43,546 bases of DNA from Candidatus Zhuqueibacterota bacterium (GCA_049322915.1 JBMOPW010000040.1:1-43546), one strand, 5' to 3'. Positions 6,017-26,214 are shown, counted from the stretch's first letter. Notes: generated from the letters alone by a model not told the origin. Made by a program: numbers and translations.

Positions 6017-6033
6017 GGGAGAGGTGAACAACG

Positions 6034-8057: not shown

Positions 8058-8073
8058 TGGTATGCTTATTGCT
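8058..8073 (+). promoter_or_regulatory. Putative sigma-54 (-24/-12) promoter
   Basis: TGGTATGCTTATTGCT has GG-N10-GC spacing, lies 35 bp upstream of the symporter ATG and follows an AT-rich tract (~7955-8035). Confidence 0.55.
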
Positions 8074-8107
8074 AAGATTGATTAAACAATAAATCGGATT
8101 TGAACGC

Positions 8108-9721
8108 ATGCAGCAGAACCTTACAACACCCGACCTCTTTTCTCTCCTTCTCTATTTTGCACTGCTCCTGGGTATCGGTTTCTATTATTCGAGAAAAGAA
8201 AGAAACAGCACCGATTATTTTTTAGCCGGTAAAAACGCCGGTTGGATTGCCATGGGCGCTTCCCTGTTCATCGCATCCATGTCCATAGATTATCTGTTCG
8301 GATTTACCGGCTCGACAGAGAATGTGTTTGCCGGTCATTTCGGATGGATGGCTGCCTTTTTCATTCTCATGCTGGGCTGGCTGTTTGCGCCGGTGTATGT
8401 GAAGATGGGCGTGTTCACCACGCCGGAGTTCCTGGGCCGCCGCTACAATCGCTTTGTCCGGGATTTCTCGACAATGTTCTCGCTGCTAGGCTATGTGTTC
8501 ACCCGAATATCCGTGCTTTTGTACGCCGGCTCGATGCTATTGAATAGCGCCCTGGGAATGGATCCGGCCGTCTCCGCGTTCATCCTGATTGCATGCGCCG
8601 GCATCTACGCCGTGACCGGCGGGTTGAAGGCCATCCTCCACGTCGATATCTTCCAGTCGGCGGTGATCGTTCTCGGCGCGCTGGCTCTGACAATGTGGGG
8701 CCTGCCCGGCTTCACCGGTCTCTCAGCTGTAACACTGACTGCCTCGCAGTCCCTCGGCACCCTGGAAAACCTGCAAGCAAAACCGTTGCTTTCAGGGATT
8801 GGAATGATGTTCGGCCTGCCGATTATCGGACTCTGGTATTGGTGCACCGATCAATACATTGTCCAGCGCATTCTCGGCGGTAAAAATTTGAATCATATTC
8901 GGAGTGGAGCCATCCTGGCCGGTTTTCTCAAATTAGTCCCGATGATGATGCTTGTCTTCCCGGGACTCATTGCTTTCGATTTTTTCAATCCCCCGGCTCA
9001 GGCGCCAAACGCCGCGTCGCTGCACGCGGCTGGCCAGTTTTTGCCCGCAGGAATCAGGGGCCTTGTAGTCGCCAGCATGCTGTCGGCGTTGATTTCTTCG
9101 CTGGCGAACAGTTTCACGAGCAGCGCCACGCTGTTCACCATGGATTTATACCGTCCGGCCCGGCCCCATTCCACGGAAAAAGAGCTTGTGTTGATCGGCC
9201 GTCTGGCGACAGTGGCGGTCATTCTTTTGGGCATTATCTGGGTGCCGTTCCTCCGCCATATCCATTCCGGCGGGTATCTTTATTTGCTGATTTTCCAGGC
9301 AGTCATGAGTCCGCCCATCGCCGCCGTATTCGTGATCGGCTTGCTCTGGACTCGCGCCAATGCTACCGGCGCTGTCTGGGCGCTGGTGTCCGGCGCGATG
9401 ATCGCTCTCGTCCGGCTCATCGCGGACCTGTTTGATGCCGCGGCAGGGGTGCGCATCCCCATCCTGCACGAGATCGCTGACATACATGTTTTACATTTCG
9501 CTGCGCTGCTATTTCTGATTTCGGGCGTTGTGTTGATCGTCGTGAGTGTGAGCACGCAGGTTTCTCCAGCGAGCCCGGCGGCGACGCGAGACGCCCATGC
9601 CATCGCCGGCAAATCAATGGGGGAGGCCAATCCAATGTGGACGAAGTTGAATATTGGTTTTTCGATTGCGCTCGTCCTGGCGCTCATTGGGCTTTATGGG
9701 ATTCCCAAAATTCTGAAATGA
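8108..9721 (+). CDS. Sodium:solute symporter (SSS/SLC5, SGLT-like), divergent
   Basis: Polytopic membrane protein; DYFLAGK, FTTPEFLGRRY, GGLKA, WYWCTDQYIVQRILG, GFLKL, TLFTMDLY, LIGRLAT. Confidence 0.9.
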   Translation: MQQNLTTPDLFSLLLYFALLLGIGFYYSRKERNSTDYFLAGKNAGWIAMGASLFIASMSIDYLFGFTGSTENVFAGHFGWMAAFFILMLGWLFAPVYVKMGVFTTPEFLGRRYNRFVRDFSTMFSLLGYVFTRISVLLYAGSMLLNSALGMDPAVSAFILIACAGIYAVTGGLKAILHVDIFQSAVIVLGALALTMWGLPGFTGLSAVTLTASQSLGTLENLQAKPLLSGIGMMFGLPIIGLWYWCTDQYIVQRILGGKNLNHIRSGAILAGFLKLVPMMMLVFPGLIAFDFFNPPAQAPNAASLHAAGQFLPAGIRGLVVASMLSALISSLANSFTSSATLFTMDLYRPARPHSTEKELVLIGRLATVAVILLGIIWVPFLRHIHSGGYLYLLIFQAVMSPPIAAVFVIGLLWTRANATGAVWALVSGAMIALVRLIADLFDAAAGVRIPILHEIADIHVLHFAALLFLISGVVLIVVSVSTQVSPASPAATRDAHAIAGKSMGEANPMWTKLNIGFSIALVLALIGLYGIPKILK

Positions 9722-10131: not shown

Positions 10132-12609
10132 ATGAAGAGATTGTTTTTGACACTGATTTTTTCAGTCATGATCGTTCATTTCGTGTATGGACAGATCGTA
10201 ATCGATAATTTTGATGCGACCAATCCGGACTCCATTTACTGGATTACGAATGAAGGCGCTCCCAGCAAAGTGACGTTCACTGTGGATAATAGCGATTTCG
10301 TCGAAGGAACGGCATCGCTTAACGTCAAAGCGACGATTGGTGCATTTCATCCATGGGGAAGCTTTGTGCAATTCGGATATGCCGTACCGGATTCATTGCC
10401 CCCCATGGACTGGAGCATCAGCGATTCGTTCAGCATTCGACTGAAAATTCGCATGGCCCCATCACATCCGGAGTTCATGGTATTTCGAATGCACATCGAA
10501 GACCAACCCACAGCCGATGCGGATAAAGAAGAATACATTTACGAAAACACCGTCATCCTGGATCAGACATCGGATTGGCTCGAGTTGAAAATACCGATTT
10601 TCGAACGACCCACTGATGGCACCACAACTCCCAATGAAGAGGGATTTGTCCTTTTCCCAACGACCTGGGGCGGCGGTTCCTATAACAACCGCGTGCTGGA
10701 TCGGAATAAAATCACGGAGTGGAGCCTCGCACTGGTCACCACCGGCTGGACCGATCCCAATAACATACCCGAAGATTCACTGGAAGTATCGTTCGATAAC
10801 CTGGTTCGCTTCGGGACCCGCGCCATTCCATTTGTGTTTTTCAATGGAAAATCGTTACCGGCAGCTATCTCTATTTGGTCCTGGGGACAATCGTCCTTTG
10901 GTTTGGAAGAAGGCGCCGGCATTGTGGCCAATACCAATGCGTTGAAATGGATTCAGGGTAACGAATGGGGAAATGGCTGGACTGGCGTTGGCATGACAAT
11001 TTCGCCGGCTCTCAATATGTCCGGTGTGTGGGAAACCGATAGCTTGAAATTCAAAATGAAAGCCCAGGATGGCGTCGGACCGATCCGGCTGCAATTTGAA
11101 GGCGGCCCTGGCAAGATAGGCGCGGTGTTCCAGCCGCTTACTGATAACGCCTGGCATTATTACGCGTTTAAACTCAGTGAATTGGTTTACCAGGAAGGCA
11201 CTTCAAACTTCGATATGGAAAATGTCGGCGTATTAGGCTTTATGGCCGAAGCGTCCGCAATTGCCGGCAAAGAAATTTTCATTACGGAATTATGGACAGG
11301 CACCCCTGATATCGATGTCGCTCCTCCCGAAGCCCCGACCGGCGTTGGCGCTTTAGCCAGTTCGTTTTACAATCTGGTGTACTGGCAGGACGTCGCCAAT
11401 GAGTCTGGCGAAACCTACTCCATCTATGCCAGCACCGAACCGATCACCGATCTGGAAAGCTCAAAAGTGGATATCGTTGCGACCGGTATTCTTGAAGACA
11501 TTCAATCTGCGGCGCATTGGCTGCTCTATCCTCTTGTGGATAAATCCGTCAGCTACTACTATGCTGTGAGTTGCATGGATGCGGCCGGCAATACCAGTGT
11601 CACATTCGGTGTGAATGCTCAGGCAGTTGTCAATATGGCCAAAGGCACCCCGACGATCTCCCCGGCGCCGCCGGCAACATTTGCAGCGGATGGGGATTTG
11701 GCCGAATGGGAAGCCAGCGGCATCGTGCCGTATGTCATGACTCCCGAGACTCATTTTGTTTCCGCCGGAACAGTGACCGATGCCGATGATATCACAGGAA
11801 CCGTTTACCTGGCTATCGATGATTCCTACCTCTACATTGCCGTGGATTGCTTTGATAATACCTACAGCCATAGCGCCGGCAACTGGTGGGAACAGGATGC
11901 ATTTGAGCTGTTCATGGGGCTGTACGACCAGCGCGGTAAAAAACATTCATCTCCCAAACGCGGCGCCGAACCTGACTACAAATTTGTGATGGATGAAGTT
12001 TCCTGCCGCGAAGATTTTGCAGGCCACACGTTCTATCTGGCAGGCGAAGAGAATTATCATTTCGAAAGCTTTGGCGGACAGGACTACGTCATTGAAACGA
12101 AAATTTCCCTGGATTCCATTTTGGCGGCTTCGGACACGAGATTCCATCCGTTGCGCGGCCAGAGAATTCCCATTGAAGTAACGTTCCACGATAATGACGG
12201 CGCCGGCTGGGAAGGCAACCTGGTCACTTCTCCAACCAATAAAGATAACGCCCATCAAACCCCAACCGTGTGGTCCAATACCTGGGTCGGCGATACCACC
12301 GATGTGGCGACTGCAATCGACGAAGAACCAGTCTCCGTGGTTGTCACTTCGTACAACTTGTCTCAAAACTATCCCAATCCATTCAACCCGACAACATCGC
12401 TCAGCTACTCGCTGGCGCAATCCGGCCATGTGAAACTGGCTGTCTATAATATGCTTGGCCAGCAGGTGAGGCTGTTGGTGGATGAAAAGAAAACCGCTGG
12501 TATGTACACGGTTCAAATGGATGCCAAAGATTTGCCCTCCGGTATTTACTTCTATCAAATCGCAACTGAAAACTTCAAGAAAACCATGAAGATGGTTCTC
12601 ATGAAATAG
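10132..12609 (+). CDS. Secreted putative glycan-binding protein (CBM-like modules, CBM9/DOMON-like domain, C-terminal sorting domain)
   Basis: AGGAGG RBS; signal peptide; Trp-rich beta modules; ADGDLAEW...YLYIAVD...DAFELF CBM9-like segment; LSQNYPNPFNPTT...SGIYFY...KMVLMK; no catalytic motif recognised. Confidence 0.6.
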   Translation: MKRLFLTLIFSVMIVHFVYGQIVIDNFDATNPDSIYWITNEGAPSKVTFTVDNSDFVEGTASLNVKATIGAFHPWGSFVQFGYAVPDSLPPMDWSISDSFSIRLKIRMAPSHPEFMVFRMHIEDQPTADADKEEYIYENTVILDQTSDWLELKIPIFERPTDGTTTPNEEGFVLFPTTWGGGSYNNRVLDRNKITEWSLALVTTGWTDPNNIPEDSLEVSFDNLVRFGTRAIPFVFFNGKSLPAAISIWSWGQSSFGLEEGAGIVANTNALKWIQGNEWGNGWTGVGMTISPALNMSGVWETDSLKFKMKAQDGVGPIRLQFEGGPGKIGAVFQPLTDNAWHYYAFKLSELVYQEGTSNFDMENVGVLGFMAEASAIAGKEIFITELWTGTPDIDVAPPEAPTGVGALASSFYNLVYWQDVANESGETYSIYASTEPITDLESSKVDIVATGILEDIQSAAHWLLYPLVDKSVSYYYAVSCMDAAGNTSVTFGVNAQAVVNMAKGTPTISPAPPATFAADGDLAEWEASGIVPYVMTPETHFVSAGTVTDADDITGTVYLAIDDSYLYIAVDCFDNTYSHSAGNWWEQDAFELFMGLYDQRGKKHSSPKRGAEPDYKFVMDEVSCREDFAGHTFYLAGEENYHFESFGGQDYVIETKISLDSILAASDTRFHPLRGQRIPIEVTFHDNDGAGWEGNLVTSPTNKDNAHQTPTVWSNTWVGDTTDVATAIDEEPVSVVVTSYNLSQNYPNPFNPTTSLSYSLAQSGHVKLAVYNMLGQQVRLLVDEKKTAGMYTVQMDAKDLPSGIYFYQIATENFKKTMKMVLMK

Positions 12610-12678: not shown

Positions 12679-14484
12679 ATGGGAAAATCTATGACGTTTC
12701 GAATCGTGGTCATGCTGCTTTTCGTCATTGGCTCGTCTGTTTTTTCCAAGGAATACAAAGGGGGTGAACTGCGCACCAAAGAATCGTATCTCTACGGCCG
12801 ATTTGAGGTTCGGTACAAAGCGTCTCCCGGCTCAGGCCAGACATCCACGTTTTTCACCTACAATGACATTGATCCAATGGTCAGGTGGAATGAAATCGAT
12901 ATTGAAATACTCGGCCGTTATACTGATGATGTTCAATTCAATGTCATCACGCCGCAAAATGGCCAAAACCATGTGCGGCATCAGTACGTAAATTTCGATC
13001 CTTCCCTGGGTTTTCACACATACACGATCGAGTGGACGCCGGAATATATCGCATGGTCTATTGATCTGATTGAGGTATGCCGGCAAACAGGTGACCACAT
13101 CACGACGATGATCAAGCCCCAGAAAATTATGATGAATATCTGGAATCCGGATGCTGAAACATGGGTCGGCCCCTGGTACAACCAGGGCCTGCCAAAATTC
13201 GCCTATTATGATTATGTCAGTTACGCGTCGTATACGCCAGGCAGCGGCGACGTTGGGACAGATAATAATTTCACTTTTATGTGGAAAGATGATTTTGAGA
13301 GTTGGGATCAATCCCGCTGGGATAAAGCGACCCATACATTCGGGGGGAATAATTGTGATTTTTTACCAGACAATGTGGTTTTTCAGGATGGGTACATGAT
13401 TTTATGTTTGACCGATAAAACCAATACAGGTTTTGTCGACAAGACTGCGCCCCACATTTTGTGGGCGCGAGCTACTGAGAATCAGGTTCTCGTTAGTTTT
13501 ACCGAAGCTTTGGACATCACCAGCGCGCAAGCAACAACCAATTATGCAATCCCCAACGCCACGATCATCTCCGCTTCTCTGCAGGAAAACAATCGGCAGG
13601 TGTTGCTGGACGTAGCCGGCTTTGTGCAAAGTCAGAACTACAGCCTTGTGGCATCCGGAATTTATGATGCGTCCGCGAATAGAAATCGATTGTTCGCTCA
13701 GATGGTCAATATCATCATGGCCTGGCCATTGACGTTTCCCATTAAAATCAATGCTGGCGGCAGCGCATTGGGTGAATTTATGCCCGACCAGCCGTGGAGC
13801 GAGAACGTTGAATATGGCTATGAAGATGGAAACGCGTTCGAGGCGTCCCAGTCACTAACTATCTATGGCACCGACATACCGCAAATTTTTCGCAGTGAAC
13901 GTCATGGCCTTGTTGCATATCGAATAAGAGTCCCGGCCGGCAGCTATAACCTTTCGCTTCTCATGGCTGAAAATTATTTTGACCAGCCGGATGAACGCGT
14001 TTTTGATATCTGGATCGAGGGCAAAATGGCGGCGCAGTCGCTTGACCTTTTCGCCGTCGCCGGGAAAAATACTGCCTATGTGATGACAGCATCTAACTTT
14101 GAAGTAAATGATGATGTGCTTGATATAAATTTCTCTGCACAAAAAGATTTCGCGCTGGTCAACGGGATTATCGTTGAAAAAATTGACACGCGCGTTTCAG
14201 AGAGTGCACTGACAAAGCCGGCAGAGTATGCGACATTGTCAAACTATCCGAATCCGTTCAATTCCAGCACCTGCATTCGCTATGCCATTCCACAGGATGG
14301 ATTTGTGACGATGGAAATGTACGATGTCCGCGGGCAAAAAATTACAACGCTGGTGGCCGGGAATCAATTGGCTGGCGAACACCAGGTTCGGTTGCAAGCA
14401 ATCGACCTGGCGTCTGGCATTTATTTCTGCAGGCTGCACAGTGCACAATCGACTCAGGTGATTCGGCTTGTTTTATTGAAGTGA
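12679..14484 (+). CDS. Secreted GH16 beta-glucanase with Ig-like, malectin-like and C-terminal sorting domains
   Basis: YLYGRFEVR and WNEIDIEILG (EIDIE catalytic motif); malectin-like KINAGG...IFRSER...AENYF...RVFDIWIEG; SNYPNPFNSST. Confidence 0.85.
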   Translation: MGKSMTFRIVVMLLFVIGSSVFSKEYKGGELRTKESYLYGRFEVRYKASPGSGQTSTFFTYNDIDPMVRWNEIDIEILGRYTDDVQFNVITPQNGQNHVRHQYVNFDPSLGFHTYTIEWTPEYIAWSIDLIEVCRQTGDHITTMIKPQKIMMNIWNPDAETWVGPWYNQGLPKFAYYDYVSYASYTPGSGDVGTDNNFTFMWKDDFESWDQSRWDKATHTFGGNNCDFLPDNVVFQDGYMILCLTDKTNTGFVDKTAPHILWARATENQVLVSFTEALDITSAQATTNYAIPNATIISASLQENNRQVLLDVAGFVQSQNYSLVASGIYDASANRNRLFAQMVNIIMAWPLTFPIKINAGGSALGEFMPDQPWSENVEYGYEDGNAFEASQSLTIYGTDIPQIFRSERHGLVAYRIRVPAGSYNLSLLMAENYFDQPDERVFDIWIEGKMAAQSLDLFAVAGKNTAYVMTASNFEVNDDVLDINFSAQKDFALVNGIIVEKIDTRVSESALTKPAEYATLSNYPNPFNSSTCIRYAIPQDGFVTMEMYDVRGQKITTLVAGNQLAGEHQVRLQAIDLASGIYFCRLHSAQSTQVIRLVLLK

Positions 14485-14662: not shown

Positions 14663-17389
14663 ATGAGAAAGTGTGCCAATCTATATCTGTTGATTTTTGT
14701 TCTGCTTGTGTTTTCCGTTATTGCCGCTTTCGCACAGACCACCGGGAAAATATCCGGCGCTGTCACTGATGCGCAGACGGGCGACCCATTGCCAGGCGCC
14801 AGTGTTCTTGTCGAAGGGACGTCTCTGGGCGCAGCAACGGCCATGGACGGGGAGTTTTTTATTATCAATGTGCCTCCCGGCACCTACACGCTCATCGTTC
14901 GAATGATGGGATATGAAACCCTGAAATATGAAAACCTCCAGGTTTCTGTCAATCGCACGACATTCGCTGGAATGAAATTGAAAACAACGGTCATCGAAGG
15001 CGATGTCGTTGTCATCCAGGCCGAGCGGACCGTGGTGAAGAAGGATCAGACGAGTTCGGTGCGAAATGTCTCTTCGGAGCAGATGGAAATACTGCCGGTG
15101 GAAAATGTCGGGCAGGTCATTTCCATGCAGGCCGGCGTTGTAAACGGCCACTTTCGTGGCGGCCGAATGACCGAAGTCGCCTACCTGGTTGATGGCGTTG
15201 AAGTCACCGAATCCTTCGGCGGCGAAGGCCGGGCAGTGGATCTGGAACCGGAGGCTGTGCAGGATCTGGAAGTCATCACCGGCACATTCAATGCGGAATA
15301 TGGCAACGCCATGAGCGGCATTGTCAACGCGGTGACCAAAGACGGACAGCAGAAATTTGAAGGCTCATTCTCAACCAGTCTGGCTGAATACGCCAGCAGC
15401 CATGACGAAATCTTCATCGGACTGTCCGATGTGAATTTGATGCGAAACCAGGATTATAAACTCCAGTTGAGCGGCCCCATCTGGGGCGACCGGCTCACAT
15501 TTTTCAGCAACGTCCGCTACCAGGACAATCTGAACCATCTGTACGGCATCCGCCGGTTCGAGGTCGATGACTACAGCGACTACTCGAATGACAACGAGTA
15601 TTTATGGCACACAGAAGCCAATGGCGACAACGAGAAGGTCTCCATGAATGGCAGCAAGAATACCTCTTTCATGGGAAAACTGACTGCGCGGCCCCTGGGC
15701 AATTTGAAAGTATCATTGCTTTACACACTCAATAATGATGAATGGAACGGCTACGATCATAGCTTCAAATACAACCCGGATGGCATGGCTGCCAGCTATC
15801 GGGAGACAAGTCTTTACTCCCTCAGTTTCAACCACATGCTTTCGACAAAGCTGTTCTACGAATTGAAACTGTCCTACATGGATAATTTTAACGGCTGGTA
15901 CGTTTTCGAAGATCGGGACGATTGGGATAATTATGTGCACGATGTGTACCTCAATAATTCCGGCCCTGGATTTTTTACAGGCGGTCAGCAAAAAGGACAC
16001 AGCACCCGCACCATGATCGACAAGAGCAGCAAATTCGATCTCGTCTGGCAGGTGAATAAACAGCACGCGCTGAAGACTGGATTTTCGTATATTGATCACG
16101 ATCTGGATAGCCGCTATTCAGACATACGAAACAAATATTCCGGGCTGGATGAAGAGGGCGTTCGTTATTATGATTACGAGCGCAACAAGACTGTTTACCC
16201 CAACTATATACCGGTCACCTACCCTGACTCTTCTGTTTACACGGATAGCATTCGCGTCAATCCCAAAGAATTCTCACTGTATTTCCAGGATAAAATGGAA
16301 TTCGATGAAATGGTCATCAACATCGGAATTCGCTATGATTACTTTGATCCCAACACGGTTGTCCCATCGGACCGACGAAACCCGGCGAATCAGTTGAGCT
16401 TGCCGGATACCATGTCGTCCAACTACCCCAAAGCAGAAGTGCAAACGCAAATCAGTCCCCGTTTCGGGCTGTCGTACCAGTTGGGAAAAAGCGCGCTGTT
16501 GCATTTCAGCTATGGGCATTTTTTCCAGATGCCGCCGATGTACGCGCTGTACGATAACAATTCATTCCGCGTGGCGCCAACCGACTATTCGACCACTATG
16601 GGCAATGCGGAAATCAAAGCGGAAAAGACCGTGCAATATGAAATCGGACTCTGGCAGGAACTGGCAGAGGGCATGGGCCTGGAAGTGGCGCTGTTCTATC
16701 GCGATATTTACGATTTGCTGAGCACAAAGATCTTCAGTACGTACAATCAGATCGAATACGGTCTGTACAGCAACAAGGACTACGGCAATGTCAAAGGCCT
16801 CGAAGTGAAGTACGATTATCGCCTGAGAAATTTTTCAACGATGATCAATTATACGCTGCAGTACACCCGGGCCAATGCCGACAACCCAACCCAGACATTC
16901 GACCGCGCCGGAAACTCCCGGGATCCCATCAACCGGTTGATCCCGTTGAGCTGGGATCAGCGGCATACCCTGAACGTCACTGTCGGCTACAACACCAGCG
17001 ATTATGGCTTGACGCTCACTGGCTATTATAATTCCGGCTCGCCCTACACCTGGTCGCCCATCGGAGAGAGCATGCTCAGCCGCGTCAATTTGTACCCCAA
17101 TAATAACTGGCGTCCCAGCAGCTATACCGTCGATTTGAATGCCTACTATGATTTCTCGATTATCAAGAATATCAAGTTGAGAGTGACGTTGAATGTCTAT
17201 AACCTCCTGGATCGATTGAACGAAGAATGGGTCAATGCCCAGACTGGCCGGGCGTATACCGCAATCATTCGGCAGAAGGATATCGAAAACCATCGGAGTG
17301 ATTTCAATGAATATCTGGACAGGGTTCAGAATCCATCCATGTATTCGGCGCCTCGACTCGTGAAACTTGGCTTCGGAGTTGTCTTTTAA
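14663..17389 (+). CDS. TonB-dependent receptor with N-terminal carboxypeptidase-regulatory-like domain
   Basis: Signal peptide; TTGKISGAVTDAQTGDPLPGASV; plug HFRGGR..EVAYLVDG..ITGTFNAEYGNAMSGIVNAVTK; SPRFGLSY; C-terminal Phe. Confidence 0.92.
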   Translation: MRKCANLYLLIFVLLVFSVIAAFAQTTGKISGAVTDAQTGDPLPGASVLVEGTSLGAATAMDGEFFIINVPPGTYTLIVRMMGYETLKYENLQVSVNRTTFAGMKLKTTVIEGDVVVIQAERTVVKKDQTSSVRNVSSEQMEILPVENVGQVISMQAGVVNGHFRGGRMTEVAYLVDGVEVTESFGGEGRAVDLEPEAVQDLEVITGTFNAEYGNAMSGIVNAVTKDGQQKFEGSFSTSLAEYASSHDEIFIGLSDVNLMRNQDYKLQLSGPIWGDRLTFFSNVRYQDNLNHLYGIRRFEVDDYSDYSNDNEYLWHTEANGDNEKVSMNGSKNTSFMGKLTARPLGNLKVSLLYTLNNDEWNGYDHSFKYNPDGMAASYRETSLYSLSFNHMLSTKLFYELKLSYMDNFNGWYVFEDRDDWDNYVHDVYLNNSGPGFFTGGQQKGHSTRTMIDKSSKFDLVWQVNKQHALKTGFSYIDHDLDSRYSDIRNKYSGLDEEGVRYYDYERNKTVYPNYIPVTYPDSSVYTDSIRVNPKEFSLYFQDKMEFDEMVINIGIRYDYFDPNTVVPSDRRNPANQLSLPDTMSSNYPKAEVQTQISPRFGLSYQLGKSALLHFSYGHFFQMPPMYALYDNNSFRVAPTDYSTTMGNAEIKAEKTVQYEIGLWQELAEGMGLEVALFYRDIYDLLSTKIFSTYNQIEYGLYSNKDYGNVKGLEVKYDYRLRNFSTMINYTLQYTRANADNPTQTFDRAGNSRDPINRLIPLSWDQRHTLNVTVGYNTSDYGLTLTGYYNSGSPYTWSPIGESMLSRVNLYPNNNWRPSSYTVDLNAYYDFSIIKNIKLRVTLNVYNLLDRLNEEWVNAQTGRAYTAIIRQKDIENHRSDFNEYLDRVQNPSMYSAPRLVKLGFGVVF

Positions 17390-17470
17390 TGGACGGAATA
17401 GGCTCAGGTTCTTTTTTCCACGGCGAAAGAAATTTCACAGGAATCTCATAAATCAGACAGAGGTGAAAAT

Positions 17471-20400
17471 ATGAAGCAGACATTTCATATTGTTAAACTA
17501 ATCACGATCATCATGTTAATCATCACTTCGAGCCTGTTGGGCCAGGGTAAACAATACGACGGCCCGGACGATCCGGCCGGCGATATTGCTGCGGAGCGCG
17601 AAGGATACATGACCGGCAACCGGGTTTTTCTCTATTTCAAAAACAATACCGAACTGTCCGATTGGCCCAAAGTGGATGTGTCCAAATGGCCCAATACCTA
17701 CGACGGCGTGAAGATGCTGGACGGCATCGGACTGCTGATCGGGGCGTTGGTGTTCATTGAAAATGACTCAGTCCCGGTGGTGGATACCAATCGGGTCAAT
17801 TTATTGGACGCTCAGGGGAAATTGGATACATTGTTCTATCTGCAGACGAGCTATCGCGAAGAGATGGATCGGGATCCTTCCGGGACAGTGGAGTGGGGGC
17901 TCTATCCGGTGTTTGGCTATTTCAATGAATTGGGCGATTACCCGGCCATGAGCAACCGCGAAGCGTCCTGGCCATTCGGCGGCTGGCCCGATGCGCCGGA
18001 TTTTGTCGATGTAAATGGCGAAACCGAGTGGAATGGTCGTTTTGGCCGCGGCGTGAAGTACGCTAGTCTGGAAACCTACTTCGTGGCCAACGATGCCCAG
18101 GACCAGGAATACCTGGGCCCGGAAGATCGGGTTCAATACTATCCCCGTCCGGGACATTACATCGGCGATATTCGGCCCAATGTCACCATCCAAAAAGGCA
18201 AACCCTGGGGCGGCATCGGCATTCGCGTGGAGCAACGCGGGTTCCAGTGGAATAACGCGCAGACGCGGGATGCCATTTTTTGGGAATATAATATTGCCAA
18301 TATTTCGGATTACGACCTGACAGAAGTCGCTTTCGGTTATTGGGTGGATAATGCCATCGGCGACGCCATTGCCGGCAGCGGCGAAGACGATGAAGTCGGG
18401 TATTTTGATACACAGATTGATATGGCTTATTCGTGGGACATCGATGAAATCGGCCAGGGCGGCTTCAGAACCGGCACCATGGGATTCGCTTATCTGGAAA
18501 GCCCCGGTCTCGGCTACGATGAAAACGATAATGACCAGGATGGTCTCCTGGACGAAAAGCGCGATAATGACGCCGAAAATCTTGTGGGACCAATGGTTGG
18601 CATTTATAATCTTCAGAAATTTTTAGAGACGTATAAAATGACTGAAGCGGATCTGCGGGAACACTGGGACGCGGATGAAGACCAGGATTGGGAAGATGGT
18701 AATGATGTGAATAATAATGGTATTTATGAAAGCAATGAATTTGCCGGCGACGATGTCGGCCTCGATGGTGTGGGGCCGTCGGAATTGAACTATTACGGCC
18801 CGGATGAAGGTGAATGTAACCATCGCCCGGATCGGAAGGAAGGCGCCGCCGAACCCAATTTTGCCGAGACCGATGTGACCGAATCCGATATGGTCGGCTT
18901 GACCTCGTTCCTGTTGTTCCGCGTGCCGGATCATGTGCCGCCGTATATCCGCTGGTTCCGAAATGACCGTTCCATGTGGGAAATCGTCGGTCGCGACACG
19001 CTGCTGGAAAGCATCGAGTGGACAACCAATTTGATCGAAGTATTTGCTTCAGGCCCCTTCCCGCTGTTTCAGGGGAGGACCGAGCGCATTTCCATGGCGG
19101 AGATTCATTCCTATGATCCTCTCGAAGGTCTGAATTCCTCGGACCACCGCGCACCGTCGCTGTTCAACAAGAAAGAGATCGTTCAGATCATTTATGAAAA
19201 AGATTACCGCTGGGCCTCCGAGCCAAAGATGCCGACCCTTTCAGCGACTGCCGGCGATAGCTATGTCATTTTGACCTGGGACGATGTGGCCGATACCAAA
19301 ACGCGGGAACCCCTGTTGGGCAATATCAACGATTTCGAGGGCTACAAGTTGTACCGCACCACAGATAAGAAGCTCTCCGATCCACCGTTCATCACAGATG
19401 GTTACGGCGATCCGCTGTCCATCATCCCCATTTTCCAGTGCGATGTGATCGATACGCTGACCGGATTTGCGACGTGGGGCATCGATGAAACAGGCACGGC
19501 CTATTATCTCGGCGATGACGTCGGCATCCAGCATTATTATGTCGATACTGAAGTGAAGAACGGCATCACCTATTATTATTCATTGATCGCCTATGATTAC
19601 GGCATCCCGGATCTGGGCCCCGGCATCGCGCCCACGCCGAATACGATCAACACTATTGAACTTGATGAATCCGAAGAAGTACGACTGATCGGTCGTAATA
19701 TTCAAATTGTCACACCGCATCAAAAAGCAGCCGGGTATGTGCCCGATGAAATTGAGGTTGTCGCGAACCCAAATCTGATTGGAAATGCCCAGGTCGTGCC
19801 GGAGATCCTGTCGAAGAGCAAACTGAAGAGCGGCCATGTGTACAAAGTCAAATTCGATCTGGACACGGTTGATGTGGCGCCGAACTATCCGCACGGCATT
19901 CAATACGTGAACGACGGCTTCTTTGTGTACGACCAGACCGAAGACGATTCGCTCATTTTCAAGGAGTCGCCGGAGAAATATTCCGGCAACAATCTCGTGT
20001 TCGACGATTCGCTGAATGTGTGGCATTTCGATACCTCGGGCGAGCTTTCCACCGATGTCTTCGAGGGAATGCGCTTGAAAATCACCATGCCGTTTGTCAC
20101 GGCCAGTTACGATTACGCCAATTCCGGCTGGCTGGTTGGCAGCGCTCCTGTCTTGATTTCACCCATGATCGACGAGCAGCAATTCTACCCATGGGATTAT
20201 GATATTGTGTTTACCGATAATGATACAGCCTTTACCGGGATTACGACACCCAGCCGGGTTTATGACAATACGTACAGCCGGTTAGCAAAGGCCGATTTAT
20301 TGACGCAGCAGAAATTCAATTTCTACGTGGTCAATAAATCGTTCCAGGACAGCCTGGGCAACAATGAAGTGATGGATCTGATCGTCCACGACATGAACAA

Positions 20401-20950
20401 CAACGATGTCTTCGATATGGTTGGCGATCGCATTCTCGTCGGCCCGGTCTCCAGTCTCGGTAGCTGGTCAGGTACGGCGTTCGTCATCACGTTTTTAGAT
20501 AATAGCAAACTCCCGGCGCCGAACGACGTCTATCGAATCACGTTCAAGCGCCCGTTCTGGTCCACTGATTCCATTCTGTTCAAAACGACGTCCTTCGATT
20601 CGGTCCTGGATGTAAAGGATGTGAAAGAGAGTATGGACAAAATCCAGGTGGTTCCCAATCCCTACGTGGCTACCAATGCCATGGAGCCGGCTGTCGCCAA
20701 TTTCTATCTGAACCAGCGGAGACGCCTGATGTTCACACACATTCCGGCGCGATGCACAATCAAAATTTTCACGGTGAGCGGCGTGCTGGTCGATGAGATC
20801 GAGGTGGACAACCCTGTGTCGCAAGGCATTGTTCACTGGGACCTGTTATCCAGAGAAGGGCTGGAAATCGCCGCCGGCATGTACATTTACTACGTAAAAT
20901 CAACCCTGACCGGGGAGGAGAAAATTGGCAAATTCGCTGTGATCAAATAG
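17471..20950 (+). CDS. Large acidic secreted protein of unknown function with variant C-terminal sorting domain
   Basis: 1159 aa, signal peptide, AGAGG RBS; Asp-rich loops (DENDNDQDGLLDE, DVNNNGIYE); FN3-like DFEGYKLYR...NGITYYYSLIAYD; C-terminus IQVVPNPY...CTIKIFTVSG...WDLLSREG..IAAGMYIY...GKFAVIK. Confidence 0.75.
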   Translation: MKQTFHIVKLITIIMLIITSSLLGQGKQYDGPDDPAGDIAAEREGYMTGNRVFLYFKNNTELSDWPKVDVSKWPNTYDGVKMLDGIGLLIGALVFIENDSVPVVDTNRVNLLDAQGKLDTLFYLQTSYREEMDRDPSGTVEWGLYPVFGYFNELGDYPAMSNREASWPFGGWPDAPDFVDVNGETEWNGRFGRGVKYASLETYFVANDAQDQEYLGPEDRVQYYPRPGHYIGDIRPNVTIQKGKPWGGIGIRVEQRGFQWNNAQTRDAIFWEYNIANISDYDLTEVAFGYWVDNAIGDAIAGSGEDDEVGYFDTQIDMAYSWDIDEIGQGGFRTGTMGFAYLESPGLGYDENDNDQDGLLDEKRDNDAENLVGPMVGIYNLQKFLETYKMTEADLREHWDADEDQDWEDGNDVNNNGIYESNEFAGDDVGLDGVGPSELNYYGPDEGECNHRPDRKEGAAEPNFAETDVTESDMVGLTSFLLFRVPDHVPPYIRWFRNDRSMWEIVGRDTLLESIEWTTNLIEVFASGPFPLFQGRTERISMAEIHSYDPLEGLNSSDHRAPSLFNKKEIVQIIYEKDYRWASEPKMPTLSATAGDSYVILTWDDVADTKTREPLLGNINDFEGYKLYRTTDKKLSDPPFITDGYGDPLSIIPIFQCDVIDTLTGFATWGIDETGTAYYLGDDVGIQHYYVDTEVKNGITYYYSLIAYDYGIPDLGPGIAPTPNTINTIELDESEEVRLIGRNIQIVTPHQKAAGYVPDEIEVVANPNLIGNAQVVPEILSKSKLKSGHVYKVKFDLDTVDVAPNYPHGIQYVNDGFFVYDQTEDDSLIFKESPEKYSGNNLVFDDSLNVWHFDTSGELSTDVFEGMRLKITMPFVTASYDYANSGWLVGSAPVLISPMIDEQQFYPWDYDIVFTDNDTAFTGITTPSRVYDNTYSRLAKADLLTQQKFNFYVVNKSFQDSLGNNEVMDLIVHDMNNNDVFDMVGDRILVGPVSSLGSWSGTAFVITFLDNSKLPAPNDVYRITFKRPFWSTDSILFKTTSFDSVLDVKDVKESMDKIQVVPNPYVATNAMEPAVANFYLNQRRRLMFTHIPARCTIKIFTVSGVLVDEIEVDNPVSQGIVHWDLLSREGLEIAAGMYIYYVKSTLTGEEKIGKFAVIK

Positions 20951-21035
20951 CGGTTTGCAACGGCCATCGGCCTGTTAACGCGGCAGATAACTCAGTAGAA
21001 ATTTTCTCCACCATCAATTTTAGAAAGGCAGACAC

Positions 21036-22103
21036 ATGAATACATACAGGCTAACAACATTCATTCTGGCCATCAGCCTACTGGTGATTGGCTTCTCTGA
21101 GGGTTTGGCGCAGGAACCGTATCGCGTCGGGACGACAGCGGCCGGATTCCTGGAAATCGGCTACGGCAGCGCCGGCAGCGCCATGGGCGACGCCTACGTG
21201 AGCGTGGCGCGCGACCTTTCATCCGTGTACTGGAACCCGGCAGGCCTGGCTTACATGGATAACAACGAAGCGCAGTTCACCTACCAGCCGTGGATTGCCG
21301 ACATCAACACCTCGTTCATCGGCGTGGGCATGGTCTATCCCTCGTTCGGAACCGTGGCGTTGAGTCTCATTCAGGTGGGCTACGGCGATATGCCGGTGAC
21401 CAATCTGGATATGCAGGACGGTACAGGCGAGTTGTTCACTGCGTCGGATCTGGCGTTCAGCGCGTCCTATGCCCGCCGGCTGGCTCAGTGGTTCGCCTTT
21501 GGCGCATCAGCGAAATTCATTTCATCGAAAATCTGGCACACCAGCGCCAAAGCCGTGGCAGTGGATCTGGGCGTCATTGTGAACACGCACTTTTTCTCAC
21601 CCACCGGCAAGCGGGAAGATGGCCTCAATATCGGCATGAGCATTTCCAATTACGGGACGAAAATGAAATACGACGGCATTGACCTGCTTTTTCCCATCGA
21701 TATCCTTCCGGATGAAGAGGGTAACTACCGCGATGTGGAAGGGAAATTCAGCCTGCAATCGTGGGAATTGCCGCTGATATTCCGCATCGGCGTCTCGCAC
21801 TCGCCCATCATCATTGGCCAGCATCGACTCATGGTGTCGGTGGATGCGCTGCACCCGAACAATAATTCGGAATCGGTAAATCTGGGCGTGCAGTACCAGT
21901 TGACGCTTCCTTCCTACGGCGAGTTCTATCTGCGCGCCGGTGAGAAGGCGCATTTCATGGAGGACACTGAGTTCGGCACGACGTTCGGCGGAGGCTTCCT
22001 GCTGCGAATGATGAATAATATGGGACTGAAACTCGATTACGGCTATCGCAATGTCGGCGTGCTGGGGAATGTTCATGTGTACACGCTGGGACTGATATTT
22101 TAA
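21036..22103 (+). CDS. PorV/PorQ-family (FadL-like) outer-membrane beta-barrel
   Basis: GTTAAGFLEIG...AMGDAY...VYWNPAGLA, DLAFSASYAR, ELPLIFRIG, LDYGY, C-terminal Phe. Confidence 0.85.
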   Translation: MNTYRLTTFILAISLLVIGFSEGLAQEPYRVGTTAAGFLEIGYGSAGSAMGDAYVSVARDLSSVYWNPAGLAYMDNNEAQFTYQPWIADINTSFIGVGMVYPSFGTVALSLIQVGYGDMPVTNLDMQDGTGELFTASDLAFSASYARRLAQWFAFGASAKFISSKIWHTSAKAVAVDLGVIVNTHFFSPTGKREDGLNIGMSISNYGTKMKYDGIDLLFPIDILPDEEGNYRDVEGKFSLQSWELPLIFRIGVSHSPIIIGQHRLMVSVDALHPNNNSESVNLGVQYQLTLPSYGEFYLRAGEKAHFMEDTEFGTTFGGGFLLRMMNNMGLKLDYGYRNVGVLGNVHVYTLGLIF

Positions 22104-22627: not shown

Positions 22628-22698
22628 AATCCTCTCCGGATCAAGGAGCCCTTTTCAGAAATTTAAATCGATCATTTCGTACAATACTTTTTCTCAGC

Positions 22699-24255
22699 AT
22701 GAATTCAGTGAAAGGCAGAATGACTTTTTCAACAAAATATCCCGGACCAAGCTTCGGCGGCCGTCCCTGGACGGCGCTGCTTCTGGCAATGCTCCTCATT
22801 TTTTCGAATTGCGGAAAGGAATCGGATAAAATTCCGGACGGGAAGATACTGGCGCGGGTCGGCGATACCATCATCACAGTCGATGAATTCCGGCGTCGCG
22901 CGGATTACACCATCCGCCCCATGTATTGCAACGGCGAGAACTACATTCACCGAAAGATCATTTTGAATTCGTTGATAGCCGAAAAACTGCTGGCGCTGGA
23001 AGCGGGCGAATCCAACGAGCTTACCGGGAGTGAGCAGTTTCGCGACTACATCCAGGGACGCGAGGAACAATCGCTGCGCCAATGGCTGTTTTATCATGAT
23101 TTCTATGACTGCGTTGCGCTGGATACCGCGGACATCCGGGCGAAGTACAAGGCAGCCGCCAGAGAATATACCATCGAGTACGTCTCGTTGAAGGATAGCG
23201 CCATTGCCGGAGAAATCGGGCGTCAGCTTCTGGCCGGCGACACGTTTGAGAATGTCTTTGCCGCGCTCGATTCGCTGCCGCAGCGGAAGGTCACCTGGGA
23301 ATCCCCGGAGCATGAGAAAATCCACGCCGCGCTGTTCAGCGGGCTGCTGCCCAAAGGGCGCATCATCGGCCCGCTGAAAATTGAACGCGATTTTTACATG
23401 GTCATGCGAGTGGCCGGCTATTCCGATGTGCATTACCTGACTGACTTTGATATCCGAAATCGCTACCGGGACGTTCAGGAGCGGATGACCCTGGACGCTG
23501 CCGTGGAGAGCTACGCGCAATTTGTTCAATCCGTGATGAAAGGGAAGCGGATCGATTTCAACCGGGACACTTTCAGGAAGCTGGTGAACCTCATCGGGCC
23601 GCTGTATCTGGCCGCTTCGAACCGAAATGAGGATGCGTTCGCCGGTCAGATCTGGCGCAAAGAAACAGAGGAGGTGTCGCTGGATTCCGTCTCGACCGAC
23701 ATCGATAAAATGGGGGAGGAGACCCTGCTCAAAATTGATGACGATGTCTGGACTGTGGCGCGCTTCAAAAAGGAATTGAATATTCATCCGCTCGTATTCC
23801 GGAAGAAGCAGATGAAGAAGGGCGAATTTTCAGAACAGTTCAAATACGCTGTCGCCGATATGATCCGCGATAAATATCTGGCCAACGAGGCGCGCCGAAA
23901 GGGCTACGATCGCGCGTTCGCTGTGTCCAACAATGTGGCAATGTGGCGGGATCATCTGATGGGGCTGTATCGCCGGAATGAATTCCTTGCCGAACGGGGC
24001 AAACTGGCCAGCTTTCAGAAAAACTACCTGACGATCCTCGATCACGATGTGAATCCCTACATCCGCGAGCTATTCCAGAAGTATTCCAATCAAATTCAGA
24101 TCAATACAGCGCTGTTCGAACGCACCGAACTTTCGCGAATCGATATGGTGGCGCTGCAAACCAATGTGCCGTTTCCTGTCGTCGTCCCGAATTTCCCCAT
24201 TGTCACGACGCACGATAAATTGGATTACGGCAGCCAGATGACCGGAACAAAGTAA
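22699..24255 (+). CDS. Foldase/peptidylprolyl-isomerase-like (SurA/PrsA-type) lipoprotein
   Basis: Lipobox LIFSNC; ILARVGDTIITVDEF, ILNSLIAEKLLALEA and a second similar module; the parvulin core looks degenerate; start may be ATG 22720. Confidence 0.55.
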   Translation: MNSVKGRMTFSTKYPGPSFGGRPWTALLLAMLLIFSNCGKESDKIPDGKILARVGDTIITVDEFRRRADYTIRPMYCNGENYIHRKIILNSLIAEKLLALEAGESNELTGSEQFRDYIQGREEQSLRQWLFYHDFYDCVALDTADIRAKYKAAAREYTIEYVSLKDSAIAGEIGRQLLAGDTFENVFAALDSLPQRKVTWESPEHEKIHAALFSGLLPKGRIIGPLKIERDFYMVMRVAGYSDVHYLTDFDIRNRYRDVQERMTLDAAVESYAQFVQSVMKGKRIDFNRDTFRKLVNLIGPLYLAASNRNEDAFAGQIWRKETEEVSLDSVSTDIDKMGEETLLKIDDDVWTVARFKKELNIHPLVFRKKQMKKGEFSEQFKYAVADMIRDKYLANEARRKGYDRAFAVSNNVAMWRDHLMGLYRRNEFLAERGKLASFQKNYLTILDHDVNPYIRELFQKYSNQIQINTALFERTELSRIDMVALQTNVPFPVVVPNFPIVTTHDKLDYGSQMTGTK

Positions 24256-24273: not shown

Positions 24274-25326
24274 ATGATTTCTAAAATGATACCCCTGCGC
24301 GTTTTTATTATTTTCACGATCCTGGTCAATGCGAGTCTCTTTTCCTACTGCAAACCCCAATCCAGCGAGCCCGACGCAAGCCGGAATGAAGAGGTCGATG
24401 CGTTTGCACAGAATGAGCTGATTGCCCGAAGCGTCAATCTGGGAAATGCGCTGGAAGCGCCGAACGAGGGGGAATGGGGCGTCACACTGCAGAGCGAGTA
24501 TTTCAGGAAAATAAAATCCGCCGGCTTCACCGGGGTGCGCATTCCCATCCGATGGTCTGCCCACGCCGAGGTCGATTCGCCGTACACTATCTCGTCGGAT
24601 TTCCTGCAGCGCGTCGATTGGGCCGTGAACGAAGCGCTCACCAATGACCTCGCCGTGATGATCAACATGCATCATTACGAAGAAATCATGGAAGATCCGT
24701 ACGGCCAGAAAAAGCGCTTTCTTGGCTTGTGGCAGCAATTAGCCCGGCATTATCGATCTTATTCCAGCGCATTGTTTTTCGAAGTGCTGAATGAGCCGAC
24801 CAATAAATTGACTGCCGAAATCTGGAACGAATTTCTGGTCGAAGCCATTCGCGTCATCAGGCAACAGAACAAATACCGCACACTGGTCATTGGCACGGCG
24901 GAATGGGGTTCGTTCAGCGCATTGAAAAAATTGGTGGTGCCGGAAGATGACACCAACATCATCGTGACATTCCATTATTACAACCCCTTCCAGTTCACCC
25001 ACCAGGGCGCCGAATGGGTGAGCGGTTCGGAGCAATGGTTAGGCGCCACGTGGCGCGGAACTGCCAATGAAGAACTAGCCATTAGCCAGGAATTGGATCA
25101 GGTCGTTCTCTGGGCGCAGCAACATCAACGGCCGCTCTTTTTGGGTGAGTTCGGCGCATACAATAAAGCGGATATGGCGTCCCGCTATGCCTGGACAAAT
25201 TTCATCGCGCGCGAGGCTGAAAAACGCGATATGAGTTGGGCCTACTGGGAGTTCTGCGCCGGCTTTGGCATTTACGAGGCGGGAACCGGTCAGTGGAATT
25301 ATCTGCTGGATGCCCTGATTCCGTGA
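24274..25326 (+). CDS. GH5 endoglucanase lipoprotein (resembles Thermotoga Cel5A type)
   Basis: VNLGNALEAPNEGEWG, VRIPIRWSAH, INMHHY, FEVLNEP, FHYYNPFQFTHQGAEW, LFLGEFGAY, SWAYWEF; lipobox-like SLFSYC. Confidence 0.92.
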   Translation: MISKMIPLRVFIIFTILVNASLFSYCKPQSSEPDASRNEEVDAFAQNELIARSVNLGNALEAPNEGEWGVTLQSEYFRKIKSAGFTGVRIPIRWSAHAEVDSPYTISSDFLQRVDWAVNEALTNDLAVMINMHHYEEIMEDPYGQKKRFLGLWQQLARHYRSYSSALFFEVLNEPTNKLTAEIWNEFLVEAIRVIRQQNKYRTLVIGTAEWGSFSALKKLVVPEDDTNIIVTFHYYNPFQFTHQGAEWVSGSEQWLGATWRGTANEELAISQELDQVVLWAQQHQRPLFLGEFGAYNKADMASRYAWTNFIAREAEKRDMSWAYWEFCAGFGIYEAGTGQWNYLLDALIP

Positions 25327-25356
25327 TTTTGTACCTTTTGAACGAGCGAGAAAATA

Positions 25357-26214
25357 ATGATGAAACGAATGGTCACGACTGGCCTGATGATATGGCTCGC
25401 CTTTGCGCTGAGCATTTCCTGTGATAAGTCGGACGACAATCCGATGAATTCCACCGATGATGACATACCCATCCCGGCAGGCTACACGCTCATCTGGCAC
25501 GATGAATTCGACGGCCCGGAGATCGATGATTCCAGATGGGAGCATGAGGTGAATGCGGATGGCGGCGGTAACAATGAGCTTCAATATTACACCGATCGCA
25601 GCGTCAATTCCTACATCGAAGACGGCGCGTTGATTATTCGGGCGCTCAAAGAGCAGTATACCGGCCCGGGCGGCACGCGCAGCTACACCTCCGCGCGATT
25701 GCGGACGCTGAAAAAAGGTGATTGGAAATACGGCCGTTTTGAAATACGCGCGAAACTGCCCTTTGGGAAAGGTCTCTGGCCGGCAATCTGGATGCTGCCG
25801 ACTGATTGGATTTATGGCGGCTGGCCGGTGAGCGGCGAAATCGACATCATGGAACTCATCGGCGATGAGCCCAACAAGGTCTATGGAACCCTGCATTACG
25901 GCGCTTCCTATCCCAACAACACCTCCAGCGGAGATTCCTATACCCTGGCCGAGGGCGACTTCAGCCAGAATTTTCACGTCTTCATCCTGGAGTGGGAGGA
26001 GAAACAATTTCGCTGGTACATCGATTCCATTTTCTACCAGAGTCAATCCGAGTGGTGGTCCGGGAATGGCGCTTACCCGGCACCGTTCGACCAATTCTTC
26101 CACATGATCCTGAATGTGGCTGTCGGCGGCAACTGGCCCGGCAATCCCGATGTGTCGACCCAATTCCCGCAGAAGATGGCAGTCGATTACGTGCGGGTTT
26201 TCAAGAAGAAATAG
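25357..26214 (+). CDS. GH16 laminarinase (endo-beta-1,3-glucanase) lipoprotein
   Basis: LIWHDEFDG, GGGNNELQYY, YTSARL, GLWPAIWML, WPVSGEIDIME, ILNVAVGGNWPG, VDYVRVF; lipobox ALSISC. Confidence 0.95.
   Translation: MMKRMVTTGLMIWLAFALSISCDKSDDNPMNSTDDDIPIPAGYTLIWHDEFDGPEIDDSRWEHEVNADGGGNNELQYYTDRSVNSYIEDGALIIRALKEQYTGPGGTRSYTSARLRTLKKGDWKYGRFEIRAKLPFGKGLWPAIWMLPTDWIYGGWPVSGEIDIMELIGDEPNKVYGTLHYGASYPNNTSSGDSYTLAEGDFSQNFHVFILEWEEKQFRWYIDSIFYQSQSEWWSGNGAYPAPFDQFFHMILNVAVGGNWPGNPDVSTQFPQKMAVDYVRVFKKK

Follow-up and report, generated by a model that had tools for sequence, protein, structure and literature searches.

How may a glucan be taken up across the outer membrane where the utilisation genes include neither SusC nor SusD, the pair to whose glycan uptake textbooks attribute the success of Bacteroidota? 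The question is raised by a stretch of 43,546 nucleotides from Candidatus Zhuqueibacterota bacterium (GCA_049322915.1, JBMOPW010000040.1:1-43546), analysed at its full length and referred to here as the window. Three consecutive genes on its plus strand, delimited by an open reading frame (ORF) scan, encode a TonB-dependent receptor of 908 aa (14663..17389), a secreted 1159-aa protein of an unnamed family (17471..20950), labelled BIG here, and a 355-aa outer-membrane barrel of the PorV/PorQ family (21036..22103). The receptor gene is separated from that of BIG by 81 nt, the latter from the barrel gene by 85 nt. An earlier reading of the DNA (the sequence-only reading) had described this triad as three consecutive, co-oriented genes without SusC or SusD signature. 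Both parts of the description hold. The three ORFs were recovered at exactly these positions, all on the plus strand; no SusD family match was obtained for the 19 window proteins scanned or for 50 flanking ORFs of seven related loci, and the SusC model TIGR04056 scores far below its cut-off, in the N-terminal part of the receptor only.

The triad is conserved and linked to carbohydrate-active enzymes (CAZymes), as had been predicted. Among 605 candidate stretches from species-representative genomes, at least 227 relatives were found, of which the best 80, each with up to 10 kb on either side, form the locus sample; the window's 19 proteins were located in them by tblastn and counted. These 80 loci represent the closest orthologue group and are all β-glucan loci, from KSB1, Fidelibacterota, Calditrichota and Ignavibacteriota. 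The receptor is encoded immediately upstream of BIG in all evaluable loci (78/78), with a median gap of 16 nt (at most 100 nt in 72 of the 78). The barrel follows immediately downstream in 63 of 65 loci and lies farther downstream in the other two (L022 and L044); here the median gap is 13 nt, and 59 of 62 gaps do not exceed 100 nt. A GH16, GH5 or GH149 gene was found in each of the 47 loci of at least 15 kb, GH16 in 46 of them. Such an arrangement of the triad is far beyond chance. Median identities to the window are similarly high for the receptor (57%), BIG (59%) and the barrel (58%), and amount to 38-45% for the CAZymes and for two further proteins encoded next to the triad.

The first of these is a secreted CBM9-like protein of 825 aa (10132..12609, plus strand; Pfam, NCBIfam); its gene immediately precedes that of the receptor in 54 of the 60 loci that could be evaluated, and four more have it at another place. 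The second is a probable lipoprotein of 518 aa (22699..24255, plus strand), whose gene follows the barrel gene immediately in 41 of 55 loci and is found elsewhere in six. The conserved module is therefore made up of five genes, encoding the CBM9 protein, the receptor, BIG, the barrel and the foldase-like lipoprotein described below; the triad of the sequence-only reading stands, but the module is wider than that reading, which had missed the two outer members. In the window, barrel and lipoprotein genes are 595 nt apart (22104-22698), while they lie close together in most related loci. A weak match to the small RNA rivX on the minus strand of this gap (22346-22505; 28 bits, gathering score 100, E 3.8e-5) is probably due to chance. 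Scans for promoters and terminators gave results at chance level, with no terminator-like site in the two gaps within the triad, and no Rfam match reached gathering scores.

In a FastTree phylogeny of 65 BIG sequences the phylum label changes 10 times, compared to a mean of 18.0 after shuffling and with none of 200 shuffles as low. Since the tree is largely ordered by phylum, the set appears ancient in these phyla rather than recently disseminated. The nearest relative of the window is L001 (85%). Several metagenome-assembled genomes titled 'uncultured Cytophagia' (L001, L003, L005, L017, L045) or 'uncultured Lentisphaeria' (L063, L065) fall inside KSB1/Fidelibacterota clades of the tree, and these titles probably misname the bins. 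The enzymes around the core vary. In a Calditrichia locus (L044) the triad is flanked by GH30 and GH2/NPCBM genes (5292-7157 and 1447-5283), and the same holds for an Ignavibacteriaceae locus (L053; 11891-13202 and 513-2961), where the GH30 is divided between two ORFs; which CAZymes accompany the core is thus not fixed.

The receptor contains CarbopepD_reg_2 (71.5 bits, residues 30-118), Plug PF07715 (39.2 bits, residues 126-219) and the barrel PF00593 (118.9 bits); the Plug and barrel scores both exceed their cut-offs, which places the protein among the TonB-dependent receptors. The SusC/RagA model TIGR04056 reached 69.1 bits (cut-off 368.25), with the match confined to residues 29-229 and to model positions 2-207 of 981. 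The same model matched 22 of 28 receptor orthologues at E ≤ 1e-5 (best 3.1e-23), and the profile of these 28 orthologues matches the SusC structure 8aa4 (8aa4_A) only over query residues 8-156. In the profile search of structures, the barrel part is nearest to PhuR, a haem receptor. The last residue of the protein is F. Judged by these matches, the receptor is outside the SusC family and has the N-terminal extension and plug of SusC type only.

BIG belongs to a large protein family that is without any family model in Pfam or NCBIfam. At E ≤ 0.001, 2116 relatives were found among the 7256 candidates scored from the 90% cluster set. The best 120 are full length and 59-85% identical and stem from KSB1, Marinimicrobia/Fidelibacterota and Calditrichota, including Caldithrix abyssi (60% identity). 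A search of 50% clusters (one representative per cluster, approximately 15 billion proteins) gave 3379 matching clusters with E ≤ 0.001, of which 1426 remained at a limit of 1e-10 and 388 at one of 1e-30, and with a member 37% identical to BIG (P0207) as query, 3466 relatives were obtained among 8000 candidates scored. Members sharing a locus-tag prefix (HQ585, two; EHM72, three; JW960, two, one of these among the orthologues) indicate that genomes carry several BIG paralogues, as expected of a component of polysaccharide utilisation loci (PULs).

No known domain could be assigned to the BIG body. Pfam gave no match to the whole protein at E ≤ 0.01 or to three pieces of it at E ≤ 10, and nothing useful for 30 orthologues; a profile search of the PDB returned one chance-level match (E 0.39). 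In the ESM Atlas, the whole protein hit unnamed clusters only, and the best score of residues 26-760 to a named cluster was 0.80. PADLOC gave no match, and hhalign of 10 segments revealed no internal repeats (best probability 6.9%). Fused forms of more than 2030 aa were not found, which is weak evidence. Among 36 distant full-length members, 30 were without Pfam family and six had only a Reg_prop propeller near residues 1000-1340. SusD families were absent from the 30 orthologues and the 36 distant members. An ordinary hydrolase in this position would have spoken against the sequence-only reading; no hydrolase or other catalytic family (CAZyme, peptidase or other) was matched in Pfam, NCBIfam or PDB by BIG, its orthologues or the distant members.

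The signal peptide of BIG is plain and ends in LLG-QGK; Q25 is invariant in the 30 orthologues and probably forms the start of the mature protein. Predicted mature ends starting with Gln were also noted for the receptor (FA-Q), the barrel (LA-Q) and the CBM9 protein (YG-Q), in agreement with the 'Q-rule' for Bacteroidota proteins cleaved by signal peptidase I. A Cys in lipobox-like context occurs in 13 of 328 full-length family members, in all cases within the hydrophobic stretch that precedes the usual A-Q site, and these 13 do not look like lipoproteins; BIG itself is not a lipoprotein.

Conservation divides the protein into three parts. Among the orthologues, conservation is highest at residues 41-760 and 1081-1159 and lowest at residues 761-1040. 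Column identity in the N-terminal body (residues 26-760, 17546..19750, plus strand) is 0.67-0.91 per 40-aa bin, with numerous columns of invariant Asp, Glu, His, Trp or Tyr and with Asp-rich, calcium-site-like runs at residues ~350-470. In the variable module (residues 761-1040, 19751..20590, plus strand), distinguished by column identity and Kimura distance, column identity is 0.56-0.67. The six distant members with a Reg_prop propeller have it close to this region in its stead. An alignment of 211 full-length members, 205 of which are less than 46% identical to BIG, gave the same picture: at least 97% of these 205 paralogues align over residues 121-360, 441-800 and 1041-1159, compared to 75-78% over residues 801-1000. 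Mean Kimura distances in 23 sources with complete sets were 0.39 for the BIG body, 0.42 for its tail, 0.65 for the receptor, 0.67 for the barrel and 1.02 for the variable part, and 1.16 and 1.17 for the CBM9 and 518-aa proteins, respectively.

This pattern bears on the possibility that BIG represents a new family of surface enzymes, as a glycanase or other polymer-processing enzyme displayed by its C-terminal domain (CTD), with the barrel or by another route, which would prepare substrate for the receptor without acting as a lid. The strongly conserved N-terminal 735 residues with their many invariant polar and aromatic positions, a body common to paralogues next to a separate module that varies, and a mass of 125 kDa, about twice the ~65 kDa of SusD-like proteins (PMC13543919), would all suit such an enzyme. 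It is nevertheless considered unlikely, as none of the proteins searched matched a catalytic family, as surface enzymes of GH16 and GH5 type are already encoded in the locus, and as the strict pairing with the receptor (78/78) is typical of transport accessories.

Residues 1055-1159 of BIG (20633..20947, plus strand), starting with VVPNPY and ending with GKFAVIK, were aligned by hhalign with 57 ordinary type A CTDs of the T9SS (type IX secretion system) at a probability of 97.9% (E 3.2e-13, 79 columns). Relative to these, the BIG tail has insertions of 14 residues after the PNPY strand and of 5 residues further on. With a hidden Markov model (HMM) built from 91 BIG tails, BIG proteins reached 101-134 bits, compared to 18-40.5 bits for ordinary CTD proteins of the same DNA, and each source had one tail of BIG type, a second copy being found in none. 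A start resembling V-P-N-P-Y within the last 140 residues is present in 327 of 328 full-length members, and an end resembling G-K-F-A-I-I-K in 316. Pfam Por_Secre_tail (PF18962) gave no match, either to the complete sequence at E ≤ 0.01 or to the segment 1041-1159 at E ≤ 10, TIGR04183 was absent from the NCBIfam matches to BIG, and the type B model CHU_C/PF13585 did not match the window BIG; among the 30 orthologues it hit a single one (E 0.012). NCBI nevertheless labels the family member P0342 a 'T9SS type A sorting domain-containing protein'. The homology seen by hhalign, together with the insertions and HMM scores of its own, points to a derivative of type A; by sequence the BIG tail is a separate subclass of the type A CTD, neither type B nor a new signal. 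That the tail is distinct, as claimed earlier, is therefore true only in the sense of a subclass.

Four other window proteins had been credited with an ordinary CTD. Por_Secre_tail did match four, three of them above the cut-off of 27 bits (31.4, 45.2 and 33.1), but the CotH protein stayed below with 18.7 bits. A natural tail exchange is seen in P0142 (1191 aa), which is 55% identical to BIG over the first 625 residues and ends in an ordinary type A tail with NYPNPFNPST instead; this protein bears on the role of the special BIG tail.

The barrel belongs to the PorV/PorQ family. It reached 208.7 bits on NF033709 over residues 33-353 (cut-off 90), while the equivalog models remained below their cut-offs (PorV NF033710, 94.1 of 250; PorQ NF033711, 88.5 of 220; PorV2 NF052325, 63.9 of 325) and covered only the N-terminal half. 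All 29 barrel orthologues match NF033709 (best E 2.6e-67) and match PorV, PorQ and PorV2 weakly, below the cut-offs. The barrel profile aligns with the PorV structure of F. johnsoniae (6h3i_F, E 1.2e-18, residues 8-216). The Toluene_X/FadL match was weak (19.2 bits, cut-off 29.7), and no PorP/SprF family was among the NCBIfam matches.

Tail and barrel together recall known pairs. In the T9SS of Porphyromonas gingivalis, PorU:PorV and PorQ:PorZ form sub-complexes (PMC5562754), and CTDs retained on cognate PorV-like barrels anchor the protein (PMC10202324). The likeness is that a PorV/PorQ-family barrel goes with a large surface protein whose CTD is type A-like, and lies also in the weak tail matches: NCBIfam aligns BIG with nothing but the C-terminal domains of PorZ (NF052228, E 1e-4, 20.9 bits with a cut-off of 260) and PorU (NF033707, E 7e-3, 14 bits with a cut-off of 420), both restricted to residues ~1047-1159. 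The body of BIG, in contrast, matches neither protein, and the genes of BIG and the barrel lie beside that of a TonB receptor in an operon for glycan uptake; the pair is multi-copy, unlike a unique core part of secretion.

BIG and the barrel could be the T9SS attachment pair of these phyla, equivalent to PorU/PorV or PorZ/PorQ, processing or attaching the type A cargo of the locus (CBM9 protein, GH16, GH5 and CotH) and unrelated to uptake. The NCBIfam matches just given and the nearly equal scores of the barrel on the PorV and PorQ models would agree with this. In Bacteroidota porU and porV are neighbours, and the length of PorU is presumably similar to that of BIG. The scores are, however, minute fractions of the cut-offs and limited to the tail; several paralogues per assembly and thousands of clusters are unlike a core secretion part, and the receptor adjoins BIG in 78/78 loci, so that this explanation is very improbable. 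An identity of BIG as a divergent PorU was considered separately and rejected, since the PorU score is far below the cut-off and in the tail only and paralogues are many.

The sequence-only reading had taken type B cargo and its PorP barrel as precedent. Type B cargo is held on PorP-like barrels, and a private barrel encoded beside its cargo anchors the cargo on the surface (PMC9143113). This principle would carry over to BIG, but with a type A-derived tail and a barrel of the PorV/PorQ family, the closer precedent is PorZ-PorQ and PorU-PorV.

The 518-aa lipoprotein encoded downstream of the barrel has a lipobox-like N-terminus (LIFSNC followed by GKESDK). Its Pfam matches are all below cut-off (SurA_N_2, 20.6 of 28.5 bits; Rotamase_2, E 0.075), with weak SurA_N_2 matches in 12 and Rotamase_2 matches in two of 28 orthologues, and its profile matches the foldase PrsA (4wo7) with E 1.5e-5. 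It is a probable lipoprotein, putatively of the PrsA/SurA/parvulin foldase type, as judged from profile and N-terminus.

A foldase-like protein next to a barrel invites a different explanation, in which the barrel and the lipoprotein would assist the assembly of the receptor and BIG. The barrel would pack on the receptor as the FadL-like BamG does on BamA and leave the BIG CTD unbound, and the BIG tail would serve T9SS export only. In the β-barrel assembly machinery (BAM) of Bacteroidota, BamA and a surface lipoprotein are bound by a FadL homologue of 14 strands, and the complex also includes two peptidyl-prolyl isomerase (PPIase) lipoproteins (PMC12578637). Here, the foldase-like gene directly follows the barrel gene in 41/55 loci, and in the mirror-tree analysis of the 23 sources the distances of the barrel correlate more closely with those of the receptor (r 0.74, partial 0.42) and of the lipoprotein (r 0.73) than with those of the BIG CTD (r 0.39, partial 0.13); receptor and BIG correlate with r 0.73. 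The barrel is nevertheless a PorV/PorQ-family protein that aligns with the PorV structure, with a weak Toluene_X/FadL match, and the BIG tail is conserved far beyond what export alone seems to need, which leaves this explanation improbable, though less so than that of an attachment pair. The resemblance to BAM lies in a 14-stranded barrel of FadL/PorV type that holds a surface protein by its outer loops beside another barrel, and in PPIase-type lipoproteins (PMC12578637); BAM differs in being a housekeeping insertase and not part of a nutrient locus, and no BamA-like gene was found in the window by the Pfam scan.

The genes around the triad indicate what may be imported. The cluster encodes GH149, two GH5, two GH16, the CBM9 protein, a CotH protein and an SSF symporter (Pfam/NCBIfam). 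Upstream, at 169..9721 on the plus strand, lie the genes for the GH149 phosphorylase, a GH5 with CBM6 and CTD, CotH with a CTD-like tail and the SSF symporter (NCBIfam, Pfam); the β-1,3-glucan phosphorylase reached 1664.4 bits on the NCBIfam GH149 model (cut-off 1150). The CBM9 protein (CBM9_1, 46.4 bits) carries an ordinary T9SS type A CTD (Por_Secre_tail, 45.2 bits; TIGR04183, 48.9 bits) and is a candidate surface glucan-binding protein. The GH16 protein with malectin and type A CTD (12679..14484, plus strand; Pfam) is probably a surface endo-β-1,3-glucanase. Downstream of the module, genes for a GH5 of 350 aa and a GH16 of 285 aa follow each other (24274..26214, plus strand; Pfam and N-termini). 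With FSYC in a lipobox-like context in the former and the lipobox LSISC followed by DKSDDN in the latter, both look like lipoproteins. The locus is very likely devoted to the utilisation of β-1,3-glucan of laminarin type, with the triad region as its outer-membrane core. Its host is KSB1-like and belongs to the Fibrobacterota-Chlorobiota-Bacteroidota group.

The CotH kinase-like protein inside the glucan cluster (6034-7767, 219.9 bits) has a T9SS-type tail, and its gene was seen again in some related loci (L001, L002, L034). The portion of the cluster present in the window showed no regulator. Relatives have genes that probably regulate the locus, either those of a histidine kinase and a sigma-54-dependent response regulator upstream of the symporter (L013, 185-2437; L063, 271-2730; L069, 5-2562) or, in L028 (166-3889), that of a divergent regulator of LacI type, accompanied by GH3 and a ROK kinase.

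Taken together, the following working is proposed. The T9SS-displayed GH16 and GH5 and the CBM9 protein would cut and hold the glucan at the cell surface, the non-SusC TonB-dependent receptor would import the oligosaccharides, and the lipoprotein GH16 and GH5, the SSF symporter of the inner membrane and the cytoplasmic GH149 phosphorylase would complete the pathway. BIG would be exported by Sec and then by the T9SS via its variant type A CTD. This CTD would remain uncleaved and stay on the neighbouring barrel, like PorZ on PorQ and PorU on PorV, and with the CTD retained, BIG would be fixed on the cell surface beside the receptor. There it would act as an accessory of the receptor, a substrate-capturing cap or platform replacing the SusD lipoprotein, with the PrsA/SurA-like lipoprotein aiding the folding or assembly of the set. 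What the data establish are the identities of the genes, their strict synteny, a tail that forms its own subclass of type A descent, the missing lipobox and how large the family is; T9SS export, retention of the CTD on the barrel, contact with the receptor and binding of glucan are steps that we infer.

The steps of this proposal are not equally secure. Export of BIG to the surface through its CTD is likely on the grounds of the tail sequence. For the barrel as the partner of BIG, the balance is modestly favourable. The earlier view of the barrel as a private carrier or surface anchor is indirectly supported by the adjacency in 63/65 loci, by a conserved CTD specific to the family, by BIG not being a lipoprotein and by the precedent of PorU and PorZ, but receives no specific support from the mirror-tree. 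The chain as a whole has about an even chance of being right, and the role of BIG as SusD-like cap or lid, purely deduced, is put forward tentatively, at somewhat less than even odds.

Four observations weigh against the proposal. First, SusD lids diverge quickly, and the N-terminal 735 residues of BIG, unlike such lids, evolve more slowly than the receptor (0.39 compared to 0.65) and are alignable across paralogues; a body of this kind would suit an enzyme or machine part better than a substrate-specific lid. Second, the mirror-tree of the 23 sources contains no specific signal of co-evolution between the BIG CTD and the barrel. Third, no T9SS core genes are located within the window, and the presence of a T9SS is deduced solely from the type A CTD cargo. 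Fourth, the adjacency is known from the closest orthologue group only, in which all loci are β-glucan loci.

Compared to the SusC/SusD systems of Bacteroidota PULs, the arrangement is alike in that a TonB-dependent transporter gene is followed by a large accessory gene inside a CAZyme cluster, that the receptor has the N-terminal extension and plug of SusC, and that several paralogous sets occur per genome. It differs in a receptor barrel that is not SusC-like (69 bits compared to 368), in a BIG protein without SusD match that is a non-lipoprotein, about twice as large and equipped with a T9SS-type tail, and in an obligatory third gene, that of the PorV-family barrel. A further comparison is with the non-SusD lids proposed for non-SusC TonB transporters in Bacteroides (BtuG, XusB, DUF4876 and others; bioRxiv 10.1101/2023.03.17.533168). 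Like BIG, these are accessory surface proteins beside non-SusC TonB transporters and unrelated to SusD; unlike the 125-kDa BIG, a non-lipoprotein with a CTD and a barrel of its own, they are lipoproteins of moderate size.

No description of the triad was found by full-text literature searches, which did not cover subscription journals and supplements. The available part of the Caldithrix abyssi genome paper does not mention it, and in that of a 2026 review of glycoside transporters (PMC13543919) the terms T9SS, type IX, Ignavibacteri, Fibrobacter and Gemmatimonad do not occur. Each half of the arrangement is of a familiar sort, the TonB transporter that has an accessory at the surface and the CTD protein that goes with a barrel of the PorV family, and their combination was found nowhere in the literature searched.

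Several features of the window lie outside the glucan cluster. Direct repeats with a period of ~250 nt (26898-27482) consist of two 130-nt copies with 89% identity and three 64-nt cores. Each copy has a GC-rich hairpin followed by a T run, and the repeats occupy part of the 1.3 kb that separate the last GH16 gene from a NACHT gene; no Rfam match was found for them at E ≤ 0.1. The latter gene, within 27531-33173, encodes a STAND protein of 1595 aa (DUF4062, NACHT/AAA_16 and many tetratricopeptide repeats (TPRs)), of which PADLOC matches only the TPR part; the G+C content is raised here, with 0.62 at 28001-30000. It is followed by a 265-aa TPR ORF, the first residues of which repeat the last residues of the large protein, suggesting a duplicated or broken copy. 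A second, unrelated pair is encoded on the minus strand (33813-39637), where the gene of a 1082-aa BNR/sortilin-type protein, with a match to the F510_1955 glycosylhydrolase model below cut-off, lies upstream of that of a haem-type TonB receptor. The two receptors of the window have only the N-terminal extension and plug in common (23% identity).

For polysaccharide uptake without SusD in the sister phyla of Bacteroidota, among them the Fidelibacterota (SAR406) that are abundant in the ocean, no description was found. On a broader and still more tentative view, BIG, its private barrel and the non-SusC receptor might constitute a second, SusD-independent 'utilisome', with a T9SS-delivered cap held on a barrel through its retained CTD in place of a lipid anchor. 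BIG paralogues, which number thousands, might then mark the PUL equivalents of Fidelibacterota, Calditrichota, KSB1 and Ignavibacteriota, and the variable module (residues ~800-1000, sometimes a propeller) might set the substrate. The conserved set of receptor, BIG and barrel would give a marker for such loci in metagenomes, and the large BIG family, so far without a family model, is now open to direct study. If the proposal is true, it would put the T9SS and PorV-family barrels in a novel role, the building of nutrient import machines.

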